64,000 nt of DNA from positions 16,620 to 80,619 of the IMG/VR virus record IMGVR_UViG_3300027710_001241; one strand, written 5' to 3'. The notes beneath the pieces are model-generated. The model ran no database searches. It was not told where the DNA came from and worked only from the letters and a program-made list of their open reading frames with translations. The position numbers were made by a program, and so were the translations under genes. This DNA comes from a virus (taxonomy: Duplodnaviria > Heunggongvirae > Uroviricota > Caudoviricetes). Positions 14,183 to 44,706 of the stretch are shown here, piece after piece; the stretch's first letter is position 1; each line of letters begins with the position of its first letter.

Positions 14183-14183
14183 A

Positions 14184-17325: not shown

Positions 17326-17384
17326 CCTCTTTTTGTTCTTTTGAGCAAAAAGTTTTTAACAACTTTCCTATCTAACTAGTCTCT

Positions 17385-17413
17385 ATTGTACATTTATTTA
17401 GTCTCTTTGTCAA
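17385..17413 (-). promoter_or_regulatory. sigma70 consensus promoter P2 (tandem with P1)
   Basis: rc reads GGTTGACA AAGAGACTAAATAAATG TACAAT. Confidence 0.55.
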
Positions 17414-17450
17414 CCACTATTTTTATATGTTGTATTTTTACAACAAAAGT

Positions 17451-17524
17451 GGTCCGGCCTACAGGAATCGAACCTGTATTGATAGCTTAGAAGGCTACTG
17501 TTCTATCCATTGAACTAAGGCCAG
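17451..17524 (-). tRNA. tRNA-Arg(UCU), copy 2
   Basis: paralog of the 3235 and 14184 tRNAs; anticodon loop CUUCUAA; D-arm GTTCAATGGATAGAAC. Confidence 0.75.
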
Positions 17525-18455: not shown

Positions 18456-18467
18456 TACGATATAATA

Positions 18468-19169: not shown

Positions 19170-19172
19170 ATT

Positions 19173-22436: not shown

Positions 22437-22437
22437 A

Positions 22438-24234: not shown

Positions 24235-24241
24235 ATTATTC

Positions 24242-26384: not shown

Positions 26385-26393
26385 GTTTCTCTC

Positions 26394-27053: not shown

Positions 27054-27610
27054 AGTGTTCCTTGAAATTTATAACAGTCATTCCAACTCGGATGACTTTG
27101 GTCTCTCTGACTAATAGTTAGTTCATCATTTAGAGGCCATTTAATTTTTAACTGTGGGTCATTCCACATAACGCCACATTCTTCTGAGCCGTTGTGATAT
27201 CCGTCTACTCTGTATCCAACATAGGTGTTAGGGTCTAGTGTAATAAATCCGTGATAGAATCCACGAGGTATGTAAACAAGACTAGGCTCGTCTTTGGATA
27301 TAGTAACTCCACAGCTCTGTCCGTAGGTAGGGCTGTCTAATCTAGCGTCAACTAAAACATCATAGATACTGCCGTTGAGTACACTAACTAGTTTAGCCTG
27401 CGGTGCATTAGCAGTCTGTCCATGCATACCTCTTACTGTACCAGCTTTCCAACTATAACTGTAAAAGTCAAATATAAAATTAGATGTAATACCTGCTTGG
27501 TCCAACCATTCTTGTCTAAATGTTTCAGTGAACCAACCACGGTTATCAGTATGTCGTTCTAATTTTATAACCTTTGCATCTTTCAAAGGTAGGTCTTGTA
27601 TTTCAATCAT
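27050..27610 (-). CDS. rfbC: dTDP-4-dehydrorhamnose 3,5-epimerase
   Basis: cupin with RGMHGQ motif. Confidence 0.75.
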   Translation of the reverse strand: MIEIQDLPLKDAKVIKLERHTDNRGWFTETFRQEWLDQAGITSNFIFDFYSYSWKAGTVRGMHGQTANAPQAKLVSVLNGSIYDVLVDARLDSPTYGQSCGVTISKDEPSLVYIPRGFYHGFITLDPNTYVGYRVDGYHNGSEECGVMWNDPQLKIKWPLNDELTISQRDQSHPSWNDCYKFQGTL

Positions 27611-28410
27611 TAGAAATAGAATCCGTTAACACGAGGAAACCATACATCGCCCCAGCCTCTAGGACTGCGATAGTTGTCATAGTCTTTTCTAGTTTCGCAC
27701 CAAAATGTCTTACCTAGGCCAATAGCCAAGGCCATAACAATACTTTGATTAGCCATTACTTGCTCTGCACCTTGAATGATACGTGCCATCTCTAGCATGT
27801 CTTCAACCTTGTGATAAGGTACGTTACAACCGAACTGACGATTAAAGGCAGCGTGTTCTTCTTCTGTACCTAAGAATACAGCAACATCATCTAAACCATC
27901 TTCAACCCACTTGCGCCAAGTAGGAGCATTAGGATCACCACCTTGTAGGTAGCGCGGTGTTCTGTTAATAACAATAGGACGATTGTCAATGCGAATAGGT
28001 TCAATTGCATCTAACCACGGATCAATTAATAATGCTTTGCGGTGTTCGTCGAGATCTAATCCGCATACCAAGGCAGCACATTCAGTTTGATTGCCCTGCC
28101 ACCCTTTAGGTCCTGTGGTAAATTTATAATGATCAGCTAGATCGTGATCTACTGTTTCATTGCGCCACAAGTCTAGTTTGTGAATGTAACTTTGTTTTTC
28201 TAAAAGTGGAAATAAAAAGTCTATGTCTTTTTGTGTGTATCTACCTGCATGTGGTCCTGCGTTCGGTGCTCCAAAGGCGTTCCACGATACTTCGTTCATT
28301 CCGTTGAGTTTGATATATACATCGCCACCTCCTAATATTTTAACTGGGCACATACTATAGATAGTATCGCCAAATGTTCCTGAATGGCTGAATGTTAATT
28401 GTTTGGTCAT
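27610..28410 (-). CDS. hypothetical protein (sugar-island member)
   Basis: start trimmed to ATG with GAGGA SD; served by minus promoter TTGACA-17-TATCAT at 28465-28493. Confidence 0.4.
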   Translation of the reverse strand: MTKQLTFSHSGTFGDTIYSMCPVKILGGGDVYIKLNGMNEVSWNAFGAPNAGPHAGRYTQKDIDFLFPLLEKQSYIHKLDLWRNETVDHDLADHYKFTTGPKGWQGNQTECAALVCGLDLDEHRKALLIDPWLDAIEPIRIDNRPIVINRTPRYLQGGDPNAPTWRKWVEDGLDDVAVFLGTEEEHAAFNRQFGCNVPYHKVEDMLEMARIIQGAEQVMANQSIVMALAIGLGKTFWCETRKDYDNYRSPRGWGDVWFPRVNGFYF

Positions 28411-28516
28411 TGGTTCCTCGTTTCGTGCAGTATTTAAATTATTTTTATCTGCGCTATAACAAATATGATACAGCCTTGATTTGCTCTTGTCAAGTCTTTT
28501 GTGTATAATTAATGTT

Positions 28517-29230
28517 ATGAAAACATTAGTATTTTGCACCTCTTACTCAAACGATCAAGCACGTTGGGATGGACTATTTGGGCGTTGGATCAATGCCTTA
28601 GAGAATAGTAAACTTGAATATGATCAACTATTATTAATTGATGATGGTAGCGCCATTATGCCCGGATGGGAAGGCGTAGAAGTTATTCAAGAAAATCAAC
28701 TACCGGACGAATGTCCTGAAAGCCGCGGAGTGATTTATCACTTTGAAAAGAACATGGGTTACAGTGGACATGCTGTATATCCAGGTTGGTATAGAAGTTA
28801 TATGTTTGCCGCCGCCTATGCAGAAAAATACGGATTTGAAAAGATCATCCATGTTGAATCTGATGCATTTATTATCTCTGAGCGTATGCAAGACTACGTG
28901 AATAGTTTAGAATCTGGATGGACCACATTCTGGTGCCCAAGACATAAGTTCCCTGAAAACAATATTCAAATTATTGCAGGTGACGCTGTTAAACGTTTCA
29001 TTGCTTGGAACAATGAAAAAGTTCCTTACTCTACATATCAAAACATCTGTGCAGAGTTTTGGACACCTTATACTCATGTAAACAAAGACTTCAAGGGCGA
29101 TCGTTGGGGCGAATTTGCTCCAGGTATGGCCGCCGTACCCGATCCAAGTTGCCCGCCAGGCGTACCACGTGACGCTGATTTTGTATGCCAAGTACGACAA
29201 GAAAGTCCAGCTTGGTGGCTTGAAGAATAA
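28517..29230 (+). CDS. putative GT-A-fold glycosyltransferase
   Basis: LLIDDGS DxD-like motif; plus-strand promoter TTGCTC-17-TATAAT at 28481-28509 puts the start at or next to the ATG (leaderless). Confidence 0.4.
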   Translation: MKTLVFCTSYSNDQARWDGLFGRWINALENSKLEYDQLLLIDDGSAIMPGWEGVEVIQENQLPDECPESRGVIYHFEKNMGYSGHAVYPGWYRSYMFAAAYAEKYGFEKIIHVESDAFIISERMQDYVNSLESGWTTFWCPRHKFPENNIQIIAGDAVKRFIAWNNEKVPYSTYQNICAEFWTPYTHVNKDFKGDRWGEFAPGMAAVPDPSCPPGVPRDADFVCQVRQESPAWWLEE

Positions 29231-29290: not shown

Positions 29291-29569
29291 ATGGGAGATT
29301 TCTTTAAACTAGTAGCAGAGCTAGGCTTTCCTATTGCAGGAGCCATGGCTGCTGGTTACTTTGTTTTCCTAACACTAAAATTCATCCTAGCTGGTGTAAC
29401 ATCCAGCGTCAACGGAATGGGCGGTATCATTAAAGGACTTGATAGTCGTGTTGATACTATGACCAACCAACTTCAAAGAATCGATGTTAAAGTAAGTCAT
29501 GCACTGGGCTTACAACCTGACTACGACCGTATTAGCAGGGCAGAGCAAGCAGACCAAAGGAAAGACTAA
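29291..29569 (+). CDS. small membrane protein, paralog 1 (holin-like?)
   Basis: ELGFPIAGAMAAGYFVF hydrophobic N-term then coiled region; paralog at 30753. Confidence 0.35.
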   Translation: MGDFFKLVAELGFPIAGAMAAGYFVFLTLKFILAGVTSSVNGMGGIIKGLDSRVDTMTNQLQRIDVKVSHALGLQPDYDRISRAEQADQRKD

Positions 29570-29570
29570 C

Positions 29571-30563
29571 ATGGTCGTATCTGTATGGAATGGTAGAGAA
29601 TATACTAGTGACTTTACTTGGGTAAGAAATTCAGAAGGTCGATTAGTATCGACACCTATAAATGATTACCGTGATATTGTTGTTGAACCAGAGGAAGAAA
29701 TTGTGAATCAAGAAACCATATTAAACTATTATGACACGTTAAGTATCAGTGATCGAGCAACATTAACTGCTTCACTGCGTACAACTGAGTTGGCCATCTT
29801 AGCACGTGAAAAAGCAGAACTTATAGCACGTAACAAGGCATTAGGTGTACCTAACGGCAAGACCAGAGAAGAATACAGCACTAGTGCTTGGCAAATCAAA
29901 CAAGACTATCCAGATTCAGAGGATGGAGTATACTGGATTCGCAATGATGACATCAACAATGGTGATCCGTTCCAAGTCTACTGTGACATGACTACACTAG
30001 GTGGTGGTTGGACATTGATTGTACAAAATTCTATTAGTAGCTGGACAGAAGAACAAGTGTTTAGTCGCAACGCTACCACTTGCCCTACTCAACTGGCCGC
30101 ATACAACAATCGTTCAGTTGAACAAAACTACAGCATCCTATCATGGGCTGACAAGATTAAACGAGCAGACTCAGGATTTGATTTTATGATCACTGCTCGT
30201 GAACATGCTTCACTAGGTGGTGCTTGGACCGCCAACGAAGCATACTCATTTACTCAAACTAACGAAAGTGCTGACATGGGTGATGAACAGTTAGGCACCC
30301 CAGGCTGGCGCAAGAACATTACAGAACTAGCACGTTTCGGCAACAATGACACTGGTCAAACGTGGGATTATCATTACGATGCTATGGAAGCACGTATGCC
30401 TTGGGTAGGTATTGGTATTAATCATGGTTGGTTGACCACAGATGGATTCCGTGGCGGTTGGTGGGGAACATTGATCACTCAAGGCGGTTGGGAACCAGCA
30501 CCGTGGTTAGCTACGGTCCAAGATGGTGCTCATCCAGGTGTTATTTGGTATTGGGTAAGATAA
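29571..30563 (+). CDS. fibrinogen-related-domain protein (possible fibre/adhesin)
   Basis: VYCDMTTLGGGWTLIQN hallmark; start at ATG after AAGGAAAG. Confidence 0.5.
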   Translation: MVVSVWNGREYTSDFTWVRNSEGRLVSTPINDYRDIVVEPEEEIVNQETILNYYDTLSISDRATLTASLRTTELAILAREKAELIARNKALGVPNGKTREEYSTSAWQIKQDYPDSEDGVYWIRNDDINNGDPFQVYCDMTTLGGGWTLIVQNSISSWTEEQVFSRNATTCPTQLAAYNNRSVEQNYSILSWADKIKRADSGFDFMITAREHASLGGAWTANEAYSFTQTNESADMGDEQLGTPGWRKNITELARFGNNDTGQTWDYHYDAMEARMPWVGIGINHGWLTTDGFRGGWWGTLITQGGWEPAPWLATVQDGAHPGVIWYWVR

Positions 30564-30573
30564 GGAGAGACTA

Positions 30574-30753
30574 ATGAAATACATAGGCTATGACTTAGTT
30601 ATTTCCGAAGAGAAACTTGTTCTTGACAAGGAAATAACACTTAAAAAACTTGAATGGAACAAGGGCGATTACCTTCAAATTACGGAAAACGATGGCCAAA
30701 TTGAATTAGTTCGAATTGACCCGTTGATAAAATTTTTAAGAGGATACAAGTAA
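30574..30753 (+). CDS. hypothetical small protein (59 aa)
   Basis: strong SD TAAGGAGAG; unlisted ORF. Confidence 0.4.
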   Translation: MKYIGYDLVISEEKLVLDKEITLKKLEWNKGDYLQITENDGQIELVRIDPLIKFLRGYK

Positions 30754-31103
30754 TGGATCCGGTAGAACTAGTAAACAAATATGGTTTCCCTATTGTTGCT
30801 GCAGGCGGCATGGGTTACTTCATATATTATGTGTGGACCTGGGTAACCACAGAAATCAAACCCGTTATAGGACAAGCCAATGGAACTCTTATTGCTCTTA
30901 TTGATCGTATTCGTATGTTGGACAATGACCTTATAAGATTAAATCAAAAGGTTGAAACTGTTATGGAACTGCGTGGTAAGACCATCGAACGTGAACGTGT
31001 TAGGGCAGAAGCTGAAATTAATAAAACAGCAGATGATGATCTGCCAATAGGTAAACGGAAAGCGACTAAAGAAGAAATAAAAGGTGCTGCCGGAGATGAT
31101 TAA
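30753..31103 (+). CDS. small membrane protein, paralog 2
   Basis: KYGFPIVAAGGMGYFIY; paralog of 29291. Confidence 0.35.
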   Translation: MDPVELVNKYGFPIVAAGGMGYFIYYVWTWVTTEIKPVIGQANGTLIALIDRIRMLDNDLIRLNQKVETVMELRGKTIERERVRAEAEINKTADDDLPIGKRKATKEEIKGAAGDD

Positions 31104-31110: not shown

Positions 31111-31815
31111 ATGCTATTAATACTTTATACTCTAATAGTGACGCATATTACCATAGTATGCGTCACTTTGTTTTTACACCGTGGACAAGCTCATCGAGGA
31201 ATTGAATTCCATCCCATATTAGGACACTTTATGCGTTTCTGGTTATGGATGACAACAGGTATGGTTACCAAGCAATGGGTAGCAATACACAGAAAACATC
31301 ATAGATTTACAGATGAATCTGAAGATCCCCATAGTCCTATACATTATGGTATATGGCGTGTATTATTCAAAGGCGCCGGATTGTATCACAGTGCTAGTAA
31401 AGACACAGCCATGGTCCAACAGTATGGTGTAGGTACACCCAGTGATTGGATTGAACAGAATTTGTACACTCCACATAGTCGTCTGGGCATAGCTTTAATG
31501 CTGGTCATAGACCTTGTTCTTTTTGGTCCATGGGGACTATTAGTTTGGGGTGTACAAATGCTATGGATCCCTTTTTGGGCCGCAGGAGTAATCAATGGAA
31601 TCGGACACTGGACAGGATACACTAATGGTAGTACAAAGGATAATAGTCGTAATATTAGTCCTTGGGGTATTATTATTGGTGGTGAAGAACTTCATAACAA
31701 CCACCACCTAGAACCTGCTAATCCTAAACTAAGTCGCAAGTGGTTTGAGTTTGATGCAGGATGGATGTGGCTAACGCTGTTTAGAACAGTAGGGTTGGCA
31801 AAGATTAGATCTTAA
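31111..31815 (+). CDS. fatty-acid desaturase (delta-9-type His boxes)
   Basis: HRKHHRF and HNNHH motifs. Confidence 0.65.
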   Translation: MLLILYTLIVTHITIVCVTLFLHRGQAHRGIEFHPILGHFMRFWLWMTTGMVTKQWVAIHRKHHRFTDESEDPHSPIHYGIWRVLFKGAGLYHSASKDTAMVQQYGVGTPSDWIEQNLYTPHSRLGIALMLVIDLVLFGPWGLLVWGVQMLWIPFWAAGVINGIGHWTGYTNGSTKDNSRNISPWGIIIGGEELHNNHHLEPANPKLSRKWFEFDAGWMWLTLFRTVGLAKIRS

Positions 31816-31907: not shown

Positions 31908-33971
31908 TCACTTTGATGTAGCTCTGTAAGTACCATCCCAATCTGCAGGTAGATTTCTAGTTCTCATATCAGCAATGCGCTCAATCCACAATTCGTAGTA
32001 ATGATCCATCTTGCCGTCAAACTCGCCGGTAAGTTCCTGACATAGTGTAACGGCCTTGTCCCACTCTTGTTTGCGATAGTATTCTAACATTAGTTCATGA
32101 TGTTCTCTAGCTGAGAACCAATCTGCTGCCACAGTGACATCTGGATTGTAGAACACTGTAAAGATGTTAACACCAACATCCTTACCTTTAACTGCAATAC
32201 AATCTAACGGAATAGTAAAGTAGTTGTCACCTACACGGGCTTGTGTAAATTCACTGATAATGATCAATACGCCATAGTTCTTAGTCTGTCCTTCTAAGCG
32301 AGCTGTTAAACTAACCGAGTCACCTAGAACGTCATAACCAAAGCGGTCTTTACTACCAATGTTACCAATCAGTGTAGGACCAGTGTTGATACCAAGTCCG
32401 CAACCTACTAAGGGCTTGCCTTCTTTGGTAAGTTCAATGTTAAACAGTTCAACAGCGTGTAACATTTCTAGTCCAGTGCGAACAGCAGCTAACACATGAT
32501 CTGGATCTTGTTCTTCTTGAATAGGAGCACCGTGGACGTGCAATGACGCATCTCCGATGAACTTGATCAAACAACCATTGTTGCGTAAAATAGGTTCTGC
32601 AATAGCAGTCATGTAACGATTCATTATTGCTGTGAACGCTACAACGTCATCGCCGTAAGTTTCACCTAGACCTGTAAAGTTACGCATGTCACTCATAATA
32701 ACTGTAAGGTCTTTCTTCTCACCACCTAGTTTAATAAAGCTAGGATCTTTCTGTAAGCGTTCGACAATAACAGGATTAACATAGCTACCGAACTGTTTCT
32801 TAATCTGTGACTTTTGGAAAAACTCATCTAAGAATTTTACTGTGTAAGCATGAAGAGCAACGAGGATAATTCCAAGGGTGAAAACAGTAGTATCAAATAA
32901 CATATGAAACCCACTATAAGCGTACATACTAGCGAATACGCTACTAACAGCCAATACAACCATTGTCGCAATTCCGACATACATCCACCTTGTTAAAAAT
33001 AATAATAGTGCGCCTGCAATAACAAGAGCCAATATCTCAGCCTGATCAGCCCACTCAGGGCGCTGAATAGTTGTACCACTTAGCATTGTTCCCATAGCGG
33101 CAGCTTGTAGATCCTGCGGCCATATTTCTCCCTTGCTAGTAGCAATAGGCTGTACTAGACCTGCGGCACTAACGCCTACAATAACTATCTCGCCTTTAAA
33201 AGATTCTGGTAGTTCGACTAGACTATGTTGTTGCGGTGTTGCACTCCAATCGATCCAAACACGACTTATTCCGTCTGTAGGTATCTTACCAAACTTAGGA
33301 ATACGTAGAGCCTCTACGCCCATTTCTCCAATCTTAATTTGGAAGTTCTTATCCTTGGCAGCTACACGTAGAGTTTCTAATGCCAGACTGGGATACAAAT
33401 GCTCTTGACTGTAAATGACTAGAGGTGTTCGGCGAACAACACCATCAATCTCTGGAAAGGTATTAACAATACCTACACCTGCTGCTCGTTCTCCTAGCAT
33501 ATCTACGTTACTAATCAATCCAGGATATTCAACAACCATACCTTCGGGATCTAATCCAATGATAGCTGCAGGACTTCCGTGTGCTGTATTCTTAGAAGTC
33601 ATACTACCTAGACTAGGCAGGATTACTGGATATTGTTCTAAAGTACGTGCTAGTACAGGGTCTTGTTTAAACCTGTCTTTTTCAGGCATTAATATATTAA
33701 AAACGACTAATCCAGCTTCTCTTTTGTAGAGTTCTTTAATAATATCTGCATAAATGTCACGACTAAAAGGGTATTGGCCGTACTTGTCTAATGCCGCTTC
33801 ATCTATGTTAACTGTATGTACAGGGATATCTTTGGCAGGTTGGCCGGTAACCAATTGATCAAAATAACGTAGTCTCACAGACTCTACAAAACTTGGATCA
33901 GCGAATCGAACACCTACTATTAAGGCAAGTGTTACTATAGCCAGCCAGGGGCTTAATAATATTTTTTTCAT
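31908..33971 (-). CDS. CHASE2 sensor domain – class III adenylate/guanylate cyclase
   Basis: N-terminal signal/TM, periplasmic domain, TM cluster, C-terminal cyclase domain (KFIGDA...). Confidence 0.7.
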   Translation of the reverse strand: MKKILLSPWLAIVTLALIVGVRFADPSFVESVRLRYFDQLVTGQPAKDIPVHTVNIDEAALDKYGQYPFSRDIYADIIKELYKREAGLVVFNILMPEKDRFKQDPVLARTLEQYPVILPSLGSMTSKNTAHGSPAAIIGLDPEGMVVEYPGLISNVDMLGERAAGVGIVNTFPEIDGVVRRTPLVIYSQEHLYPSLALETLRVAAKDKNFQIKIGEMGVEALRIPKFGKIPTDGISRVWIDWSATPQQHSLVELPESFKGEIVIVGVSAAGLVQPIATSKGEIWPQDLQAAAMGTMLSGTTIQRPEWADQAEILALVIAGALLLFLTRWMYVGIATMVVLAVSSVFASMYAYSGFHMLFDTTVFTLGIILVALHAYTVKFLDEFFQKSQIKKQFGSYVNPVIVERLQKDPSFIKLGGEKKDLTVIMSDMRNFTGLGETYGDDVVAFTAIMNRYMTAIAEPILRNNGCLIKFIGDASLHVHGAPIQEEQDPDHVLAAVRTGLEMLHAVELFNIELTKEGKPLVGCGLGINTGPTLIGNIGSKDRFGYDVLGDSVSLTARLEGQTKNYGVLIIISEFTQARVGDNYFTIPLDCIAVKGKDVGVNIFTVFYNPDVTVAADWFSAREHHELMLEYYRKQEWDKAVTLCQELTGEFDGKMDHYYELWIERIADMRTRNLPADWDGTYRATSK

Positions 33972-33972
33972 A

Positions 33973-34392
33973 TCAGCAATTCCATTTTCTTAATGCTAGG
34001 GCTTTTCTAGTAGGTTTACCGTTGGGCTTCTTCATAGGACCTTTAACGCCGCCCATTCTAGCACAGAATGATTTACGGCGCTTGGCTGCTTTGCTGCCTT
34101 TTTTAAGTTTACTAGGTTTAGTTGTAACTGCTGTTTGTAGTTTACTACCTGGATTCTCTCTGCGATAGCTGGCAACACCTTTGGCGTTTAAGCCACCTGA
34201 CTTACTCTTACCTTCTTTCCTGCGCCAAGCTGCTGTTTCTAGCAATTCGTAATCATCAACTGATTCAAAATCTTCCCAGATAACTTCTGCATCAACTCCG
34301 TGCTCTTCGGCTAATTCTTCAACCATTTCTTCAATTAGATCAAATTGTTGATCTACATCTAATTCTTCTGTTATAAATTCATTTGCTCTCAT
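33973..34392 (-). CDS. hypothetical protein (acidic N-terminus, basic C-terminus)
   Basis: ORF 139 aa. Confidence 0.4.
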   Translation of the reverse strand: MRANEFITEELDVDQQFDLIEEMVEELAEEHGVDAEVIWEDFESVDDYELLETAAWRRKEGKSKSGGLNAKGVASYRRENPGSKLQTAVTTKPSKLKKGSKAAKRRKSFCARMGGVKGPMKKPNGKPTRKALALRKWNC

Positions 34393-34868
34393 TTTTTCTT
34401 AGCCCTTCCTGCTTTCATATTAGCTAACCAGTGTGCTAGTTGTCCTTTACGTCCACCTTGTTTAGCAGTTTTACGTAGACTACTTACTGATGCTTTAGTG
34501 TTAATGCCGTGACGCTTGCTGTCACCTTTATCTTGCGGATTGCGACCGTCGGCAAAGTTTTCATTTTCAATGCTTTCACCTGTCATATAAGGAAGACCAA
34601 ACCACAACTTAAACCATTCTGCATCGCCAGGTTTAATATCGTGTTTACGCATTATGTTAGTTTTTTCTTGACTTGCTTGCCCAAACGTTTCACCGTAGCT
34701 TTCTTCTAAACTGTGGCCACCTTCCATCATAGCATACTCTAAAGCAGTGAATTTAGGAGAAGGTTTAACAGCCATTTCTGCATCTAGTTTAGCCTGTAGA
34801 CTTTCCGTATAAGTTTTAGGCTTCTGAGGTTTGGCAGGTTGTTTAATAAGGTCGTCGAATCGCATCAA
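34389..34868 (-). CDS. hypothetical protein
   Basis: ORF 159 aa. Confidence 0.4.
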   Translation of the reverse strand: MMRFDDLIKQPAKPQKPKTYTESLQAKLDAEMAVKPSPKFTALEYAMMEGGHSLEESYGETFGQASQEKTNIMRKHDIKPGDAEWFKLWFGLPYMTGESIENENFADGRNPQDKGDSKRHGINTKASVSSLRKTAKQGGRKGQLAHWLANMKAGRAKKK

Positions 34869-34878
34869 CTATTTATAG

Positions 34879-36972
34879 TCAATTGCCCTGGGTAACGCTA
34901 ACTGAGCAACCTGATAATGTAGCACATTGCTGTGTAATGTTGATGTTTTGTGCTGTAGCACCTTGTTGAACTAGTGTAACATTACTGGCTCCGCCTGCGT
35001 TAGTTAGGTTAATAGTAGCTTTATGACTACCAGCATCCTTTTGGTTAGCAGTAACATTGTGTCCGTTACCTGTTAGACTAAGATCTAGGTAACTACCACT
35101 TCCGTGTTGTGTAATATCAAATATGTTAGTATTACCATTTAAGATACCAAAGAATGTTTTCTCACCATTACCTGTTTGCGTTAGCGTTCCATTATTGCCG
35201 TTACCGGTAATGTCAACATAGGCAAAATGTCCGCTGGTACCACCGCCATCATTGCTTTGTTTTAAACTTAATGTGTTTGTGCTTCCATTAATGTTTAGGC
35301 CCATATAGTGCCCGCCACTCTCGCTAGCATCCTGTAGTCCTGTTGTGTGATTACGTGCTTGCCATATAGATACATTGTTAGTGTTACCTGTGATGCTAAA
35401 CTCAATTAAGTTTTTGCCCAATGTATCACCTTGTTTAATATTAATTGTATTGTTGTCACCATCTATGATAGAATAGGTACCGCCTCCTATTCCCGCTACC
35501 TTGTTATAGTTGCCAGTTTGTTCAACAGTAACTGAGTTACCACTGCTACCAATCTTTTGATCAAGGTAAAAATAATTACCTAGAACAATATTGGCTACAC
35601 GAGTTTTAGCTGCGTTCTTCTGTGCAGTCTGACTTAAACTAATATCACTGGTGGCTGGCCAGCTAGGAGCACAGTCGGCACATACGCTGCCTGGTTGTCC
35701 AGGGTTACTAGGTGTACCACCTGTGCCTGTGTCGGTACTGGTAATGCCATCATCTAAGTCGTAGTAATATGTTACTTCGGAGACCTGTACGCTATTGCCA
35801 CTGTTGTTCTTAATACTTGGGAATTTTATAAAGTAATAGATATAAGCATTAGTGTTGGCCACTGTGATTTCACCGCTAACTGTAAATCTATTATCAGACA
35901 GACTTAATGGTCCTTCTGATAGTAACACCCAATTAACGCCATCGTTTGATCCGTATAGTTTATAACTGGCAGGATCGCGCTCAACTGCGTCATTGGCTGT
36001 GGTAATTGTAAATTTCTTAACCACACGTCCTTGGTTTAGTTTAACAGTAACACCTGCGTTCTGTTTATCAAAGTTTAGATATTTGGTGTTAGGATTACCG
36101 TCGAAGGCATTGACAGCAGTTTCGTTGCTAGGGCTGTTATTACTAGTAGGGTAGATGTTGTTGATTACTACAGGACTGCTAGTTGTTTTAATTGTCTGCC
36201 AGTTCGGTGCCGCAGGCGTAGGTGTAGTTGCTGAAGGAGCAGTTGATCCAGGGTTAGGAGCAATTGGAGCAAATGCTGTACCGTTTAATAATGTTGTACC
36301 CTGAATCTCATCAACAAATAGTATAGGACTCAGTGCTGTGTCACCTAAATTGAATGTAGCAAATCCCAATTCATAATTACCTGTTACCGGAACAGTGAAT
36401 ACAACCTTTTGCCATCCGGTACTTCCATAACTGTCAGTAGCATAGTTACCTGTACCTGGGTTGGTAAATCCTAGTAGACCGTAACGCTGTTGACTGTTAT
36501 TCAGCGTAGGTGTAATACTTGCATCAGTAGAATGAACTAGCGTGACCATAGATCCGTCATTGAACGGGGTATAGTCTGTGCTTACATAGTTCCAGGCAAA
36601 AGAATATGTAACTCCTGCTGTTAAGGTCATTGACCTTTTCATCCAACTTGCGTCAGTCGGTGTTGGATTTCCGCCCCCTGCATTTGCAGTCATAAACTGT
36701 CTAATGGCATTATTTTCTGCTGTGGTTAGGCCTAGACTTGTTGTGGCAGCGTTGAATTGAACAACACTTGTCGGATACAATTTACCCATCCATGAACCAT
36801 AGGGATTGATAGTCCAACATTTACTGTTACCTGTACAAAGGTTTACCACTGATTGACTGGCAGTAGCATCGCCGCCGGATGTTGTCCATCCATTTAAATT
36901 ACCTGTTTCAAATCCTGCCTGACCAAAGGCATTAGAGCATAACAACAATAAGGCTAAGAATATCTTTTTCAT
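34879..36972 (-). CDS. secreted multidomain protein: central F5/8 type C (discoidin) domain plus C-terminal curlin-like repeats
   Basis: signal peptide MKKIFLALLLLCSNAFG; FDGNPNTKY...YGSNDGVNW; C-terminal G-N-x-N-x5-Q-x-G repeats. Confidence 0.5.
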   Translation of the reverse strand: MKKIFLALLLLCSNAFGQAGFETGNLNGWTTSGGDATASQSVVNLCTGNSKCWTINPYGSWMGKLYPTSVVQFNAATTSLGLTTAENNAIRQFMTANAGGGNPTPTDASWMKRSMTLTAGVTYSFAWNYVSTDYTPFNDGSMVTLVHSTDASITPTLNNSQQRYGLLGFTNPGTGNYATDSYGSTGWQKVVFTVPVTGNYELGFATFNLGDTALSPILFVDEIQGTTLLNGTAFAPIAPNPGSTAPSATTPTPAAPNWQTIKTTSSPVVINNIYPTSNNSPSNETAVNAFDGNPNTKYLNFDKQNAGVTVKLNQGRVVKKFTITTANDAVERDPASYKLYGSNDGVNWVLLSEGPLSLSDNRFTVSGEITVANTNAYIYYFIKFPSIKNNSGNSVQVSEVTYYYDLDDGITSTDTGTGGTPSNPGQPGSVCADCAPSWPATSDISLSQTAQKNAAKTRVANIVLGNYFYLDQKIGSSGNSVTVEQTGNYNKVAGIGGGTYSIIDGDNNTINIKQGDTLGKNLIEFSITGNTNNVSIWQARNHTTGLQDASESGGHYMGLNINGSTNTLSLKQSNDGGGTSGHFAYVDITGNGNNGTLTQTGNGEKTFFGILNGNTNIFDITQHGSGSYLDLSLTGNGHNVTANQKDAGSHKATINLTNAGGASNVTLVQQGATAQNINITQQCATLSGCSVSVTQGN

Positions 36973-38150
36973 CTAAAGTTCTGATTGATAACAATCTGTC
37001 CTTGTGGCTTACCTGGAGCAAAATTCCACTGGTTGGTCTGCATGTCTTGTGTTACAGTAACTTGAACCTGCGTATTCATTGGCATGACAACATTGGCATA
37101 GTTACGACTATTGGGACTCAAACTTTCGTACAACCAGCCAACTTGTTGTGTTTCACTTTTATCTTTAAATAATTTTTTAACATAGGGATTGTCTGTATCG
37201 CCTACTGCGGCTACTTCATTAGATAGAGAATCTTTATTAGAGGCAGTATCAACTCCTACCTTTGTAGCAGTTTCTAAATTTTCATCACCTTCATTGGCGC
37301 TACGACCTTGCTTGTAAGATTTGCTGCCGGTGCCGCCTTCTTGTTTACCTGCCACATGTTGCTTCTCTTGATCTTTAGAGTCATCCTTGTCGTCTTTTTC
37401 GTCTTTCTTGTCTTTGTTGTCACCCTTTTTAGCATCGCCTGTTTTTTCAGCGGCAGCACGAGCAGCCTGGATGACATTCATACCTGTGGTTGTTTTAGGA
37501 GGATTAACCATTAAGTTGTTGCCAATGGCCATGCCATTCAGGGCCACAATAACCGCAGGACTAGGCATGCCATTTAGTGTTTCAACAAGGGTGGCTTGAT
37601 AAGGACGATTTAGTTTAACTATGCCTGCCGGAGTTTCCACATCAATAGCTCCGCTGCCACAGCTAAGACCTTTTAAGTTTACGTTCTGTTCTATTTCACA
37701 AGTTGGCATCAACATAATCATACTGGCACCTGTTTCGCTGACAGCCATAACAAAGTCTGTTCCGCGAACGGCAATGGCCGCTGTGGGTGTGTTGATTTTT
37801 ACGTTTTTAGGATCTTTAGCTATGCTACCTGATACATAACGCACAGTACCTGCGGCTGCTTTAAGTCCTAGCTTACCTGCACCGCTCTTAGGATCATATA
37901 CGAAGTCATCAATAACAAGGCTACTCGACTCAGTAACAGTAACGTTTGTATCGTCTTTAAAAACAATCTTAACCTTACCATTCTTAGTCTCTACCTTGTC
38001 ATTGGTTTTGATTTCTGTGCCTTTAACAATTTGAATTGTATCTTTACCACGCTTAATGATGGCGGTACCCGATGCCTCAGTGACAGAACCAATGTCCGCC
38101 CAGGCAGCGCCAGCCATCATTAAGCTAATGATAAAGAGGGCAATTTTCAT
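36969..38150 (-). CDS. secreted FecR-domain protein with KD-rich low-complexity linker
   Basis: signal peptide; FecR-like region ending RGTDF; DKKDEKDDKDDSKD tract. Confidence 0.45.
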   Translation of the reverse strand: MKIALFIISLMMAGAAWADIGSVTEASGTAIIKRGKDTIQIVKGTEIKTNDKVETKNGKVKIVFKDDTNVTVTESSSLVIDDFVYDPKSGAGKLGLKAAAGTVRYVSGSIAKDPKNVKINTPTAAIAVRGTDFVMAVSETGASMIMLMPTCEIEQNVNLKGLSCGSGAIDVETPAGIVKLNRPYQATLVETLNGMPSPAVIVALNGMAIGNNLMVNPPKTTTGMNVIQAARAAAEKTGDAKKGDNKDKKDEKDDKDDSKDQEKQHVAGKQEGGTGSKSYKQGRSANEGDENLETATKVGVDTASNKDSLSNEVAAVGDTDNPYVKKLFKDKSETQQVGWLYESLSPNSRNYANVVMPMNTQVQVTVTQDMQTNQWNFAPGKPQGQIVINQNFR

Positions 38151-38159
38151 TGCCAGTCC

Positions 38160-38948
38160 TTAGTTCTTCTGGGTAATGTTGAACATGCCGTTGTTAGACA
38201 CACTCTTAATATTGATAACACTATCAATAGTACCAGTTTGACTCAACGTAAATGTGTTACTGTTACCTGCTAGATCAACCCAAATACTAGATCCAGCTGC
38301 ACCAGTTGAACGTTGGTTAATATCAAAAGTGTTAGTGTCGCCGACTACTTTGATAGTTTGGCTGTGTTTGTCACCAATCGCATCAATTCGGAAAATGTTG
38401 CTGTTACCAGTTACATCAACAGCACTCTTTAGATCGGCGCCTGTACCACGGAATTGGAAGTCGTTGCTGTCGCCAGTGAACTTCCAGTTTAGGTCAGCGG
38501 CATTACAACCTGTTAATGCTGTACCACCTGTTGAAGCTGTGCCATAACCGCAGGCTGCGTCAACTCGGTTACTATCGCCAATTTGTTGTATTGTAATGTT
38601 AACACCTTTGCCTGAGCCAGTAGTATCGTTAACAGCTTCTAAACTGATATCGTTGTTAACGCCAACTTGTTTTGTAACAATAATTTGATCAATACCACGT
38701 AGATATATAGGTCTGCCACCGGATCCGGCTTTGTTACCTGTACCATCTTGTGTCATATTGACATTTGGATTGTCACCGCTTTGGTCGATAAAGATACGGT
38801 TAGTTGTAGCAATGGCCAATGCGGCTGTTGCGTTAGGGCTAACTGTAGCCATTGTAGGTATTGTTGGGGCTGTTGGAGCCGTTACAGCAGTCTGGGCCAT
38901 GGCCGGGAACGCTGTTAATATTGCTAATGCTAATAATATTTGTTTCAT
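38160..38948 (-). CDS. secreted curlin-repeat (CsgA-like) protein
   Basis: signal peptide MKQILLALAILTAFPAMA; at least 7 repeats matching G-(N/D)-(S/T)-N-x-F-x-(I/L)-x-Q-x-G. Confidence 0.5.
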   Translation of the reverse strand: MKQILLALAILTAFPAMAQTAVTAPTAPTIPTMATVSPNATAALAIATTNRIFIDQSGDNPNVNMTQDGTGNKAGSGGRPIYLRGIDQIIVTKQVGVNNDISLEAVNDTTGSGKGVNITIQQIGDSNRVDAACGYGTASTGGTALTGCNAADLNWKFTGDSNDFQFRGTGADLKSAVDVTGNSNIFRIDAIGDKHSQTIKVVGDTNTFDINQRSTGAAGSSIWVDLAGNSNTFTLSQTGTIDSVINIKSVSNNGMFNITQKN

Positions 38949-39084
38949 ATTGTTTCCTTTGGACTTAAATGGTGTCCTTCCCGTTAATATTTAAATGTAT
39001 TATCCTACAAGTTAAACACCGATGTTAATTTTTTTACACTGTAAATTTTTTTACTGTAAAAATTTTAACACCTATCCTTTTTTC

Positions 39085-40023
39085 TTATCTCCAGAATGGG
39101 AGTCCTGTTTGGACACCCTTTTCTTCGCTTCCTTCATCACGCTTTCTGATATTGGACTGCTGTGGTGCGGATGAAGTTTTGGCGGTTCCTTCACGTGGGG
39201 TTTCCTTTTGAACCAACTCATTGGGTTTCTCCTTGAATTGCCACAAGCCGTTACGCTCACCTTTCTTAATCAATTCAATGACCGCTGTTTCAATTGCTGA
39301 ACGTAGGGCGTAGTTACCTGGCTCGTTAAATGTTTGGCTTGAGTCGAACTCAAAAGCCTGTGTTGCCTGGTTGAAAAACTTCAACGCAGTAGCGCCATCG
39401 GCAGTACTGAGCAAGTTCTTTTCCACTGTTACAGTAGTTAAAACTTCGCCAGTTTGCACACTCACTAAACGTAAGCTGATAACAACTACGTCTTGAGTGT
39501 AAGCTGTTTGTGTGCCAATACCCAACCAACGTGCTCCTGTGCCGCCCGTTAGTGTATTGCTGTTATAGTCGATAATGCCACCTTCTAAGATAACACCTGC
39601 CATCTGTAGTGGAGGTAGCATCTTAGCATTTGCGCCTTCATAGATCTCACGTGTCTGCTTGATCATCTGACGCTCTTTCAATAAGTTGTCTAGGCCAACA
39701 CGTTCAACAACTGTGAACCATTGACGATTGCCAACTTCTTGTAGGCTCTTCATTAAGTATGCTTCGGCACCCTGTGTAACTGCTGTGCTGAATAAACTCA
39801 ATGTATTGCTAGGTTTACGTTGTCCTGTTAGGTCTTTAAAACCATATACTGCCACTGTTACTGCCGGACCTGCTGGCGCAGGAACAACTGCAAAACTCTT
39901 GTTGATTGTTTCGCTTACTCGAGCTTCTTCTTTGATCTGTGTACTGCCAAATGGACGAATAGTCGAACATCCAGTTAGGGCTACTACGGCTAGCGTGATT
40001 AAGGATAATTTAATTGCTTTCAT
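39085..40023 (-). CDS. csgG: curli production assembly/transport lipoprotein CsgG
   Basis: lipobox LTGC; FSTAV, GLDNLLKER, GGTGARWLGIG, SAIETAVIELI as in E. coli CsgG. Confidence 0.85.
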   Translation of the reverse strand: MKAIKLSLITLAVVALTGCSTIRPFGSTQIKEEARVSETINKSFAVVPAPAGPAVTVAVYGFKDLTGQRKPSNTLSLFSTAVTQGAEAYLMKSLQEVGNRQWFTVVERVGLDNLLKERQMIKQTREIYEGANAKMLPPLQMAGVILEGGIIDYNSNTLTGGTGARWLGIGTQTAYTQDVVVISLRLVSVQTGEVLTTVTVEKNLLSTADGATALKFFNQATQAFEFDSSQTFNEPGNYALRSAIETAVIELIKKGERNGLWQFKEKPNELVQKETPREGTAKTSSAPQQSNIRKRDEGSEEKGVQTGLPFWR

Positions 40024-40033
40024 TCTTTACTCC

Positions 40034-40540
40034 TTAAAAACTAAAACTAGCAATTGGAACTATAACAGTGGTTACATTACCCTTGGCATCTACTACTGTT
40101 AATGTAACTTTGTCATTGGCCTTGGACCATGTAACTGTATTGCCGTCTAGCAAGAAGTTACCTGTTGTTGGATTCACGCAACCTGGGATCGCTGTACCAT
40201 CTGCGGCAGCGCATTTGTTGGTGAATAAATTATTGCTTAACTGTGTAGCAAGTTGAGCGTAAACCTGACTTTGGAACAGACTCATAAATCTATTCAAAGG
40301 AGTGTTTAGTAATTCTGCTTCTGCTTTGGCAATTGCTGCTTTTTTGTCTGCTTCAATTGCATCACGTCTTGACTTTTCAATACTGTCAATTGTTAAAACG
40401 TGACTACTAAATCCAATGCCGCTGAAGGCTGGATTCTTAAACTGTTGTACTAATTCTGCGCTAACTGTAGAGACTGCTAGTGTTAGCACTACTCCTATAA
40501 TCGCACTGGTCTTTTTCATAGACTGCTCCCATGTTATCAA
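40034..40540 (-). CDS. csgF: curli assembly protein CsgF-like
   Basis: signal peptide then QQFKNPAFSGIG (cf. CsgF FQFRNPNFGG) and LFQSQVYAQLATQLSNN; GGGAG SD. Confidence 0.6.
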   Translation of the reverse strand: MITWEQSMKKTSAIIGVVLTLAVSTVSAELVQQFKNPAFSGIGFSSHVLTIDSIEKSRRDAIEADKKAAIAKAEAELLNTPLNRFMSLFQSQVYAQLATQLSNNLFTNKCAAADGTAIPGCVNPTTGNFLLDGNTVTWSKANDKVTLTVVDAKGNVTTVIVPIASFSF

Positions 40541-40592: not shown

Positions 40593-40964
40593 TTAAGGAA
40601 TGAGCAGATACCATACCATCCATATGTAGGTGGCTTGGTGAGCGAATTGGTCTAGGCCAAATTGTGTCCAGAAGATGGGTTTAGTTTGATCTTTGCTACC
40701 GTATTTTACTTTGGTATAGTCTACTAGATAATGTATAATACCTTCGATAACAGACACAGCTATTATACCAATGGCACTTATTGGAACGTAGAGGGAAAAA
40801 ATAAAGATCGCTATCAGCGAACAGTAGACATGATCTAATGTATGGCTGATGCCAATAGGATCCATCCACACGCCCTTTTTGACTGTTTGCATGTAGGTCT
40901 GCAAATAGAAGTCGGCGTAGCAGTGCTTGATCTGCAGGAGCAATAGTAATATTAGAATTTCCAT
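40593..40964 (-). CDS. hypothetical integral membrane protein
   Basis: 123 aa, 3-4 predicted TM segments. Confidence 0.35.
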   Translation of the reverse strand: MEILILLLLLQIKHCYADFYLQTYMQTVKKGVWMDPIGISHTLDHVYCSLIAIFIFSLYVPISAIGIIAVSVIEGIIHYLVDYTKVKYGSKDQTKPIFWTQFGLDQFAHQATYIWMVWYLLIP

Positions 40965-42629: not shown

Positions 42630-43301
42630 TTAGTGAAATTCAGGAAATAGAATTTCTTGTACAAACTGCTTCATTTTAGGTTCAGGAACGCCCATGCTGA
42701 TCATACTCTTGATTACATGTGGATTCTGCTTTTGATAGTGGCAATAACGATTTTGAGCCATATGATAGTCGGCTCCGCTTTGCTGATCTATGCCTATATT
42801 GTTTAAATAGAAATCTAAGGTAGTTAATGCTGTAGAGCATAGCTGGTCAATTTCAGCTTCATCTTGTAGATTACCTGCGGCAACCATAGCAGGACTAAAG
42901 ATCTGCTGAGCCCACTCGGGTAATTGTCTAGGTTTATTCCACTCTAATCCGTTGACCTTGGCTTTAAACCACAAGTACATAAAACTACGAGGATCGCCTG
43001 CTTCACTGAAATCATGGAAGGCGCCGGTTATTTTGTTAGGACCGCATACAGCATCAAAACCATAGATAGGACTAGGGTCGTTGAAGTGTGGAAATACTGT
43101 AACGTGTAAAATATAGATATTATAAGTTTCTCTAAAATCTACTATTTCAACGTGAGCTCTACGATACCTATTGCTAGTCCAAAGGGTATTATGCCAGCCG
43201 TATTGATCTTCTGACGATCCGTTGATTACTTCGCCGGTGGCATTGAATTTTTCTGTGATGTCTGCGGCTAGCTTGCTGACTTTATCCCAAACTACTGTCA
43301 T
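42630..43301 (-). CDS. ferredoxin-dependent bilin reductase-like (PebS/PcyA family?)
   Basis: 223 aa; 3' overlaps heme oxygenase gene as in ho1-bilin reductase cassettes; homology by memory only. Confidence 0.4.
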   Translation of the reverse strand: MTVVWDKVSKLAADITEKFNATGEVINGSSEDQYGWHNTLWTSNRYRRAHVEIVDFRETYNIYILHVTVFPHFNDPSPIYGFDAVCGPNKITGAFHDFSEAGDPRSFMYLWFKAKVNGLEWNKPRQLPEWAQQIFSPAMVAAGNLQDEAEIDQLCSTALTTLDFYLNNIGIDQQSGADYHMAQNRYCHYQKQNPHVIKSMISMGVPEPKMKQFVQEILFPEFH

Positions 43302-43818
43302 AGTCCCTCATCATGCGTATGGCCCAGTCAAAGGCTACATTGGCTTCATCGCCCATACTGTCGTCTAACTTAGCACGAATGTTGGTCATTAGTGTGCGTG
43401 GGTCTGTAAACTCTAAGTTACGATGTGCGCCCGGGACAATCTTCTTAATCATCTGTCCGCCAAACATGTCGCCCATGTGCCAAGTGTAAAGGTGTGCCAT
43501 TACTTTGTTAGGATCATTGGCAATAGAAATTAGATAACGATAGTAGTCAATAACAACCGGACGGAAATCATGTTTTTTACGTTCAGTATTCATTTCATTA
43601 TAATCCATGAACAGATAAAATGCTCTACGTAAATCAGGTAAATCGCCTAGTAAACGATTAGCACCTGCGGCGCCTTCAATGGCTCCGTAGAACAACCACT
43701 TTTGATATGTCCAATCTACCCACAAATCAAAAGGCAGAGTTTTTGCAAACACTGCCTTCATGAACGGAGTAGATTCAGCCTCTGCATGTTTAGCACTGGT
43801 TAAATCTTTTAAACTCAT
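43282..43818 (-). CDS. ho1: heme oxygenase
   Basis: TSAKHAEAE proximal His region; HLYTWHMGDMFGGQMIKKI matches HO-1 HAYTRYLGDLSGGQVLKKI. Confidence 0.85.
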   Translation of the reverse strand: MSLKDLTSAKHAEAESTPFMKAVFAKTLPFDLWVDWTYQKWLFYGAIEGAAGANRLLGDLPDLRRAFYLFMDYNEMNTERKKHDFRPVVIDYYRYLISIANDPNKVMAHLYTWHMGDMFGGQMIKKIVPGAHRNLEFTDPRTLMTNIRAKLDDSMGDEANVAFDWAIRMMRDYDSSLG

Positions 43819-43826
43819 TTAGTTCC

Positions 43827-44132
43827 TCATTCTGGTTCTACTTTAATTATCAGAGGATAACCGTTAGCCCTAGCAAGATTGGTTGCGTCGAGTGCTTTTT
43901 GCTCTGCAACTTCGTAGCTAAAAACACCGGCAACAGCACTACCGCTATTGTGTATCTTTAGTGTTAGCTCTAGAGCGGATTTTTCATTGTGTCGGAATAC
44001 CATGACCAGCATGGATATTACAAATTCAACAGGAGTTACATCGTCATTGCAGACGACTACTTTAAATTTACCTGGCGCTTTAATAGTGTCGGTAACTTTG
44101 GATTTCTTTTCAACGATTGTATCTGTTGCCAT
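43827..44132 (-). CDS. clpS: ATP-dependent Clp protease adaptor ClpS
   Basis: VVVCNDDVTPVEFV ... ClpS core. Confidence 0.8.
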   Translation of the reverse strand: MATDTIVEKKSKVTDTIKAPGKFKVVVCNDDVTPVEFVISMLVMVFRHNEKSALELTLKIHNSGSAVAGVFSYEVAEQKALDATNLARANGYPLIIKVEPE

Positions 44133-44182
44133 GATTGTATTTAATAACGGGTTTAGTAAAGGGGGCCGAAGCCCCTGAAAGA

Positions 44183-44617
44183 TTACTCAGCCTTGATCTT
44201 TAAAACTCTTGGCTTAAGAGCTTCAGGAACAACACGAGTTAGAGCAATAGTAAGAACACCGTTTTTAATGCGGCCTTCTCCTACTTCCATGTGTTCAGCT
44301 AGAGTCCAACTGCGTGTAAAATCACGAGTCGCTAGTCCACGATGTAGATACTGTGTTTCAGCGTCTTCATTGCGACTACGTTTACCTGTGACTACAAGTT
44401 GGTTTTGATCAAGCTCAACTACAACTTCATCTGGAGTAAAACCAGTAACAGCAATTTCCAACTCATAAGAGTTGTCATCGTGTTTTAGAATGTTGTATGG
44501 TGGATATGAGTTATTGATTTGACTTGCAAGACGCTGTTCGAAGTTATCAAACATTGTGTCAAATCCTACTAGAGCTCTGTTTAGAGCATTGGTGTCGAAA
44601 CGTACTAATTGATTCAT
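44183..44617 (-). CDS. Hsp20/alpha-crystallin small heat-shock protein
   Basis: alpha-crystallin domain; AAAGGAG SD. Confidence 0.85.
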   Translation of the reverse strand: MNQLVRFDTNALNRALVGFDTMFDNFEQRLASQINNSYPPYNILKHDDNSYELEIAVTGFTPDEVVVELDQNQLVVTGKRSRNEDAETQYLHRGLATRDFTRSWTLAEHMEVGEGRIKNGVLTIALTRVVPEALKPRVLKIKAE

Positions 44618-44630
44618 AATTTTCTCCTTT

Positions 44631-44662
44631 AATAAGTAAGAATCATTTGGGCTCTATGCCCA
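44631..44662 (-). promoter_or_regulatory. conserved leader motif upstream of hsp20 (shared with dnaK)
   Basis: minus reads GGGCATAGAGCCC AAATGATTCTTACTTATT AAAGGAG; hairpin GGGC/GCCC. Confidence 0.4.
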
Positions 44663-44706
44663 ATTGTAGGACCCATTTAGGTGTCCTACAATTTTATTTA
44701 TAACAA

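Follow-up and report, generated by a model that had tools for sequence, protein, structure and literature searches.

Gene content of the module

The window analysed here, a stretch of 64,000 nucleotides from a Caudoviricetes virus (positions 16,620 to 80,619 of IMG/VR record IMGVR_UViG_3300027710_001241), contains a tightly packed row of minus-strand genes (31908-40540) that encodes a curli, or type VIII secretion system (T8SS), module with its own cargo-like repeat proteins. A sequence-only reading of the window had proposed such a module from five open reading frames (ORFs), encoding CsgF, CsgG, a 262-aa curlin-repeat protein (subunit 1), a FecR-domain protein and a 697-aa protein (subunit 2). 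These five ORFs are indeed found on the minus strand, and all five proteins match the families named for them above the Pfam curated cut-offs, which we used for family assignment along with NCBIfam and PHROGs. The hidden Markov model matches, the full-length alignment of CsgG and the conserved gene order all support the proposal, and the E-values of the CsgF, CsgG, Curlin_rpt, FecR, F5_F8_type_C and CHASE2 matches indicate that the module is real, far beyond chance. Signal peptides can also be read from the sequence in all the parts predicted to be secreted.

The same reading took this virus-encoded system to be undescribed, a claim that fails since the gene order has been annotated in two cultured T4-like phages and analysed in print (PMC7029224, PMC9004378, PMC9599517). 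Searched as DNA against 50,697 phage records, the module gave no match; only the protein-level search succeeded, with CsgG homologues of 44-47% identity in four strains of Methylophilales phage Melnitz and in Pelagibacter phage HTVC008M. In both phages the annotated order is CsgF, CsgG, a curlin-repeat protein, a FecR-domain protein, a second curlin-repeat protein and an adenylate cyclase, and tblastn showed homology to our module gene by gene. Judged by these comparisons, the module is homologous gene for gene to that of Melnitz and the pelagiphages. It also has the colinear order of the phage T8SS module of Wittmers et al. 2022, with the short 'HK'-type gene pair present but relocated. The cluster was described in pelagimyophages by Zaragoza-Solas 2020 (PMC7029224), who proposed 'sibling capture'. 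Buchholz 2022 (PMC9004378) suggested that it acts in the timing of lysis, like a pinholin or secretin, and stated that csgA/B are missing in Melnitz. In podo- and myophages, Wittmers 2022 (PMC9599517) identified genes for CsgA/B, FecR and cyclase as well as short 'HK' genes, inferred an alphaproteobacterial origin, and reported metatranscriptome expression and co-occurrence near 1:1 ratios. The distribution of the module across the oceans is likewise covered in this literature. Phage-borne curli modules are common, the phage T8SS making up about 0.1% of assembled ocean viral proteins (PMC9599517).

Closer relatives were obtained from a scan of IMG/VR, in which 54 viral contigs, perhaps mostly of freshwater origin, share the block with CsgG identities of 65-93%. 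The order DnaK, Hsp20, ClpS, heme oxygenase, bilin reductase, DUF3307, CsgF, CsgG, subunit 1, FecR, subunit 2, cyclase is colinear in nearly all of them. As had been read from the sequence, csgE and csgD are missing: none of the ten ORFs scanned between 31908 and 42619 matched the Pfam families CsgE, CsgC or CsgD, and neither of the two small ORFs at 29291-31103 matched Pfam significantly. The three genes are also reported to be absent from alphaproteobacterial and phage modules (PMC9599517), so the enterobacterial set does not define the wider family.

Table 1. Position and assignment of the module genes and adjoining features in the window.
Feature	Position	Strand	Remarks
csgF, secreted CsgF-like cap or nucleator	40034..40519	-	161 aa from ATG; alternative TTG start 40540 = 168 aa
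csgG, outer-membrane lipoprotein channel	39085..40023	-	Pfam CsgG 1.8e-50, 171.6 bits; 10-nt gap after csgF
spacer csgG / subunit 1, 136 bp	38949..39084	-	three tandem AT-rich palindromes and sigma-70-like promoter
subunit 1, secreted curlin-repeat protein, 262 aa	38160..38948	-	
secreted FecR-domain protein, 393 aa	36969..38150	-	9-nt gap after the 262-aa gene; Pfam FecR 5.2e-10, residues 51-141
subunit 2, secreted curlin-repeat protein with adhesin-like head, 697 aa	34879..36972	-	Pfam F5_F8_type_C 1.9e-9
small basic protein, 159 aa, function not assigned	34389..34868	-	inserted in some relatives only
DUF6321 protein, 139 aa	33973..34392	-	Pfam DUF6321 3.9e-22; PHROG 4689 2.5e-31; inserted in some relatives only
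membrane CHASE2-sensor class III adenylate cyclase, 687 aa	31908..33971	-	Pfam CHASE2 7.2e-40, Guanylate_cyc 8.8e-14
paralogue B, membrane helix and coiled coil, 116 aa	30753..31103	+	PHROG 18771 2e-32
paralogue A, membrane helix and coiled coil, 92 aa	29291..29569	+	PHROG 18771 7e-30
DUF3307 membrane protein, directly upstream of csgF	40593..40964	-	Pfam DUF3307 7.7e-9; PHROG 2470 2e-17

The stop of the FecR gene overlaps the start of the 697-aa gene by 4 nt. A CHASE2 cyclase had been placed after the 697-aa gene and is present there, but it does not follow directly, as the two small ORFs for the 159-aa and DUF6321 proteins intervene. The 159-aa ORF occurs in a minority of the related loci and had no match in Pfam and PHROG searches. 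Of the 52 related loci with a DUF3307 gene, most have it immediately ahead of csgF, and it was undetected in Melnitz or HTVC008M; it is tied to the module in this lineage only, and its membership of the module is uncertain.

CsgG, CsgF and the curlin-repeat subunits

CsgG aligned over its full length (residues 9-267) with E. coli CsgG (6lqh/3x2r) at E 5.5e-44, and matched the NCBIfam CsgG model at 6.7e-49 (166.8 bits, under the equivalog cut-off). A lipobox, LTG followed by Cys19, is present, and the module has in this protein a CsgG-family outer-membrane lipoprotein channel of the kind that defines curli and type VIII secretion. The constriction loop, which reads GQRKPSNTLSLFSTAV as compared with GQFKPYPASNFSTAV in E. 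coli, is one residue longer, retains Phe56 and is nearly invariant throughout the phage family.

For csgF, the ATG at 40519, as called in metagenome records, is a more likely start than position 40540, given in the sequence-only reading. Starting there, the protein has a canonical signal peptide, MKKTSAIIGVVLTLAVSTVSA, followed by ELV. It matched Pfam CsgF at 6.8e-11 (42.9 bits, profile positions 8-132 of 132) and PHROG 35372 at 5e-35. The mature N-terminus ELVQQFKNPAFSG matches GTMTFQFRNPNFGG of E. coli, and the motif F-K-x-P-x-F-x-G, which aligns with FRNPNFGG in E. coli, is invariant in all of eight diverse phage CsgFs. When a profile of these eight sequences was searched against the PDB, the sole sequences found were those of E. 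coli CsgF, weakly (E 0.65) and aligned on this motif. In the structural work behind 6L7A and 6SI7, the E. coli segment FQFRNPNFGG reportedly inserts into the CsgG barrel. The phage protein is thus predicted, from its sequence, to be a CsgF accessory protein whose N-terminal segment inserts into CsgG. Among the 54 IMG/VR contigs, CsgF identity correlates with subunit-1 identity (r = 0.90), and two discrete CsgF/subunit types exist at equal CsgG divergence (about 70-72%). Such tracking is expected if CsgF contacts the subunits, and the covariation would fit physical contact, shared ancestry being known to inflate correlations of this sort.

The 262-aa protein starts with a signal peptide, followed by a Pro/Thr/Ala-rich stretch and then by the repeats. 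Its Pfam Curlin_rpt match is borderline (1.8e-4, 21.8 bits versus a cut-off of 20.7), and its NCBIfam matches to CsgB and CsgA are sub-threshold. At least seven curlin repeats had been claimed for this protein; it is secreted and does contain curlin repeats, but we count five clear ones of 22-23 residues (151-262), of the form x-V-x-L-x-G-N-x-N-x-F-x-I-x-Q-x-G, and three to four degenerate ones (49-135) rather than seven clean copies. In the AlphaFold model all repeats are strand-turn-strand (pLDDT 71.6 overall, about 88 over the clear repeats). A Foldseek search with the 262-aa protein gave no significant match, and generic beta-solenoids such as SufB come close behind among its structure matches.

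In the 697-aa protein, the model comprises a beta-sandwich (25-225), a Pro/Thr linker, a discoidin/CBM32 domain (256-405) and a beta-solenoid (479-668; pLDDT 75-92). Alignment with the marine phage genes is confined to the C-terminal solenoid (residues ~430-695); the beta-sandwich and discoidin heads are additions relative to those genes. Versions of 518, 624, 697 and 982 aa with differing heads occur in relatives. Both subunits resemble CsgA structures, and their database relatives number 602 and 2430 (90%-identity cluster representatives). The module therefore also has the Sec-exported curlin-repeat subunits (CsgA/CsgB) of a curli system, and the solved-structure matches place the 'missing' CsgA/B in it, contrary to one Melnitz analysis.

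Could the pore act alone? In the lysis-timing proposal made for Melnitz (Buchholz 2022, PMC9004378), CsgG with or without CsgF would be a gated outer-membrane pore that times or assists lysis in the manner of a pinholin or secretin, and the repeat proteins would be accessory or vestigial. The constriction residues that differ from E. coli and the lack of CsgE agree with this, as do a SleB-type cell-wall hydrolase gene lying at most 1.5 kb from csgF in one relative (L053), with homologues in nine related loci, and the module-linked membrane-helix and coiled-coil pair, which is holin- or spanin-like in shape. However, pinholins depolarise the inner membrane, which an outer-membrane pore cannot do, and the CsgF plug motif is kept while CsgF divergence tracks that of the subunits. 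Moreover, marine and non-marine lineages have inherited the pore together with the two Sec-exported curlin-fold proteins, the FecR protein and the cyclase, at 30-45% identity, which argues against vestigial cargo. The lectin-type heads on subunit 2 point to adhesion over a bare pore, and we regard a pore-only function as distinctly improbable.

The HfaB equivalog model also matched CsgG, at 3.9e-7. Together with the lectin-type domains of subunit 2 and the presence of a sugar-biosynthesis cluster in the same window, this weak match raises the alternative of an anchor of the Caulobacter holdfast type (HfaA/HfaB/HfaD-like), which would tether polysaccharide, possibly made by the phage's own sugar-nucleotide cluster, instead of building long fibres. 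The HfaB match reaches only 29.5 bits against a cut-off of 300, far from the score of the CsgG model, and CsgF, present here, is lacking in Hfa systems; with subunits of CsgA-like structure as well, we hold a holdfast-type anchor to be highly improbable. The sugar-nucleotide/polysaccharide cluster itself (17973-28539, minus strand) includes a DegT-type aminotransferase, NAD-dependent epimerases/dehydratases and a dTDP-4-dehydrorhamnose epimerase. It lies close to the lectin-bearing subunit and may modify the host surface.

FecR-domain protein, cyclase and spacer

The FecR-domain protein has a signal peptide ending in ...GAAWA before D and matched PHROG 37870 at 6.6e-64. Over its first ~250 residues it shares 41-46% identity with the same-position genes of Melnitz and HTVC008M; a sequence search of the PDB found no relative. 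The N-terminal cytoplasmic anti-sigma domain and the transmembrane helix that precede FecR in anti-sigma regulators are both absent, and by its sequence the 393-aa protein would share only the FecR domain with these regulators.

The cyclase aligned with solved class III cyclases at E 1e-26, and both metal-binding Asp residues, the adenine-specifying Lys and the Arg are kept. It is 41% identical to the Melnitz cyclase over the full length. Across the 54 contigs its identity is uncorrelated with that of the rest of the module and varies independently, and a sister sub-family of the cyclase is found in other related contigs and HTVC008M. PADLOC returned only generic cyclase similarity.

The two small paralogues are encoded downstream of the module on the opposite strand; in Melnitz and HTVC008M, the homologous pair directly precedes csgF. 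The member of that pair next to csgF shares 63% (Melnitz) and 55% (HTVC008M) identity with paralogue B, and paralogue A is 55% identical to Melnitz gp97 and 42% identical to HTVC008M gp011. The pair lies near the module in 28 of the 28 loci where it was detected. It probably corresponds to the 'HK' genes of Wittmers et al., and neither HisKA, HATPase nor any other Pfam domain was found in it at E<=1. Between the two paralogues, a plus-strand gene (29571-30563) encodes a 330-aa protein with a fibrinogen/collagen C-terminal-like domain (Pfam COLFI 3e-6, Fibrinogen_C 6e-6), found in few relatives only.

A FecR domain, best known from iron-citrate signalling, next to a CsgG without a CsgE gate would suit an ungated channel for the uptake or leak of small molecules such as cofactors, siderophores or nutrients, as suggested in PMC7029224 and PMC9599517, with the FecR protein and the cyclase as its sensing arm. 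A porin gene and a PstS-like gene elsewhere on the same phage go in the same direction. Such a channel would leave two secreted curlin-fold proteins and CsgF without a role, the N-terminal plug of CsgF would narrow it, and the FecR-domain protein, with its cleavable signal peptide, does not have the anti-sigma transmembrane layout of a true FecR. We consider an uptake channel very unlikely.

The spacer between csgG and subunit 1 contains a sigma-70-like promoter (TTAACA-18-GATAAT) and three tandem palindromes of type TGTwAA-N4-TTwACA. Two palindromes of the form TGTWA-N6-TWACA are located at 39023-39038 and 39055-39070, out of five in the whole window, where 0.78 would be expected. The long form of the spacer (136-149 bp) occurs only in a sub-lineage, the other relatives having 17-40 bp. 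In five related loci the proximal box is fixed 88-89 nt before the ATG of subunit 1, and in three of these it reads TGTT-N8-AACA. In Sinorhizobium meliloti, clr, cyaD1 (a CHASE2 cyclase) and smc02177 (an extracytoplasmic FecR-domain protein) are neighbours, and the Clr box is TGTT-N8-AACA (PMC5498481). By this analogy, the CRP/Clr-like boxes could be a lead to control of subunit expression by cAMP; the phage module itself yielded no regulator gene. When the module was scanned for sigma-70 promoters and terminators, the hits did not rise above chance. In the window, the T4 late-promoter motif TATAAATA occurs 7 times versus 6.2 expected and is uninformative. On the coding strand, copies of TATAAATA immediately precede the 159-aa ORF (34870-34877), Hsp20 (44695-44702) and DnaK (46661-46668).

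Viral carrier, proposed function and known systems

The replicon had been read as viral, and this is confirmed by the 54 IMG/VR contigs, by the gene order of the two cultured phages and by T4-type replication genes beside the module in relatives. One flank (L053) carries a T4 gp44-type clamp loader (Gp44_lid), PhoH and the cell-wall hydrolase, and in another (L041) there are genes for a virion-structural-like protein and a phage DNA polymerase. It was solely in flanks of this kind that T4-type replication genes turned up. The content of the window is itself phage-typical (dCMP deaminase, 2OG-Fe oxygenases, exonuclease, ribosomal protein S21, Ro-like RNA-binding protein, sugar-nucleotide cluster), and it holds 33 tRNA genes, all on the minus strand (3235-17524), that cover most amino acids. 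At least two of the tRNA groups have sigma-70-type promoters (TTGACA-17-TATAAT/TACAAT) ahead of them, near 17540 and 10830. The module sequence is identical to that on a 44-kb JGI metagenome contig, and four related contigs exceed 200 kb (208, 250, 327 and 383 kb). The largest, IMGVR_UViG_3300042868_005134, has the module at both ends (L054, L057), in differing copies whose CsgG is 87% and 91% identical to that of the window, and may represent two strains joined as a concatemer and not a single 383-kb genome. The carrier is a large, tRNA-rich T4-like phage, and the module is thus carried on a phage genome, as are the phage T8SS modules described before.

One could still read the locus as part of an ordinary bacterial chromosome that holds a canonical curli operon, or the system as an export route for virion fibres, the latter being one of two functions offered by the sequence-only reading. 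Indeed, no capsid, portal or terminase gene was found within the 64-kb window (by Pfam, PHROGs and comparison with the whole Melnitz genome), and one complete module, at 34-60% identity, lies on a 46.6-kb contig filed under a 'Bacteroidetes bacterium' metagenome-assembled genome (L070, RGCF01000015.1). The flanks of that contig are phage-like (Tet/JBP oxygenase, UDP-galactopyranose mutase, DruA-like gene), however, and it is probably a mis-binned phage contig. Against a bacterial segment also stand the related viral contigs, the gene order shared with cultured phages, the clamp loader, PhoH and DNA polymerase beside the module, the tRNAs and the match of the window's genes to phage families. 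Virion-fibre export is unsupported because virions assemble in the cytoplasm, which the subunits, given their Sec signal peptides, would leave. This evidence effectively excludes both, and we give them negligible weight. A scan of 185,579 species genomes with the CsgG alignment found four loci, one with the whole module and three with CsgG lacking FecR and cyclase; it relies on short exact patterns, so there may yet be a bacterial donor.

Several neighbouring genes complete the picture of the carrier. A heme oxygenase gene (43282-43818) and a ferredoxin-dependent bilin reductase gene (42630-43301) adjoin ClpS, Hsp20 and DnaK. Most of the related viral contigs have kept this block (42630-46620) upstream of the module, and the bilin-synthesis pair occurs without any other cyanophage marker in the window. 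Unusual cargo is found at 51632-53029, 58234-61656 and 62460-63909, including a 1140-aa Eco57I-type methyltransferase fusion, ribosomal protein S21, ClpX and a DUF2828 and DUF7788 (TROVE/Ro-like) protein, probably the source of a PHROG 'RNA-binding protein' match (1.5e-151). A fatty-acid desaturase gene lies in the window (31111-31815) and three more just past its left end (L066 flank), with TauD, Asp/Arg hydroxylase and radical SAM genes.

With somewhat more belief than doubt, we lean towards a working type VIII secretion system, equipped with a cAMP sensing arm, through which the infected cell would come to bear amyloid-like fibres that bind carbohydrate. Every structural part needed is present, and the parts are conserved together. 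In the infected Gram-negative host, the lipoprotein CsgG would form an outer-membrane channel, plugged by CsgF through its conserved N-terminal F-K-x-P-x-F-x-G segment. The two Sec-exported beta-solenoid subunits would cross this channel unfolded and polymerise on CsgF as amyloid-like fibres. The beta-sandwich and discoidin/CBM32 domain of subunit 2 would make these fibres carbohydrate-binding, so that the infected cell would adhere to particles, other cells or its own glycans. Adhesion of this kind could serve to catch new hosts or to protect the cell against other phages. The sensing arm, which would set cAMP, would consist of the CHASE2 cyclase, the exported FecR-domain protein and the pair of small membrane proteins; in the sub-lineage, cAMP may act back on the promoter of the subunit gene by way of a host regulator of the CRP/Clr type. 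Remodelling of the host surface or matrix, the other function offered before, would on this sequence evidence be the leading idea.

Several observations weigh against a working fibre system. CsgE is absent, and in the constriction loop of CsgG Tyr51 is replaced by Ser and Asn55 by Leu, besides the extra residue. A channel of ~1 nm is an awkward passage for a 697-aa subunit that contains three Cys pairs and two globular domains. In the cyclase, the transition-state Asn, which the sister sub-family retains, is replaced by Ser (GDSVSLTARLE), likewise in Melnitz, and the CRP/Clr-like boxes are confined to a sub-lineage. To our knowledge, a curli fibre has never been seen with any phage. Buchholz et al. 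saw no clumping of Melnitz-infected cells (PMC9004378).

A stronger version, which we judge rather unlikely, is that a widespread lineage of large T4-like phages makes infected cells grow lectin-tipped amyloid fibres, switched by the CHASE2 cyclase and the FecR sensor via cAMP and a host CRP/Clr-type regulator. If true, this would be a virus-run, signal-controlled adhesion or matrix programme, in which interchangeable sugar-binding heads tune the targets of the cell. The arrangement of cyclase, FecR-domain protein and CRP box suggests how the module might be regulated.

Of the known systems, the T8SS of pelagiphages and Melnitz (HTVC008M, Melnitz, and uncultured pelagimyophages and HTVC023P-type podophages) is alike in gene set and order, in its small-gene pair, in its T4-like carriers and in the absence of CsgE, CsgC and CsgD. 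It differs in that protein identity is only 29-47% and in that our carrier is another, much larger one (contigs of 142-383 kb, 33 tRNAs, DnaK, ClpX). Here the small-gene pair is relocated downstream on the other strand, two extra small ORFs are present, subunit 2 has gained a beta-sandwich and a discoidin/CBM32 head, and a promoter insert with CRP/Clr-like boxes separates the pore from the subunit genes. The curli of E. coli and Salmonella (csgBAC-csgDEFG) share with the module the CsgG lipoprotein channel, the CsgF plug motif, Gln/Asn-rich strand-turn-strand subunits and the CsgA fold. Unlike them, the module is viral, lacks CsgE, CsgC and CsgD, runs in one operon direction instead of two divergent operons, does not keep Tyr51 and Asn55, has longer subunits, one with globular heads, and includes FecR and the cyclase in the cluster.

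The clr-cyaD1-smc02177-smc02178 cascade of S. meliloti is comparable in that a CHASE2 receptor cyclase adjoins an extracytoplasmic FecR-domain protein and in the box type TGTT-N8-AACA. That rhizobial locus has no T8SS genes, no regulator gene was found in the phage module, and the likeness of the boxes is one of sequence. The Caulobacter holdfast anchor HfaA/HfaB/HfaD likewise combines a CsgG-family outer-membrane protein with curlin-like and adhesin-like secreted partners, but the HfaB score falls far short of its cut-off and CsgF is present here. Compared with these systems, what appears to be new is the lineage (abundant and distinct, made up of large T4-like phages), the lectin-type heads fused to subunit 2 and shuffled among relatives, the divergence of CsgF in step with the subunits, and the CRP/Clr-like boxes of a sub-lineage. 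The module thus adds no new category; its value lies in sharper hypotheses about lectin-tipped subunits, the tracking of subunits by CsgF and a possible CRP/Clr link.

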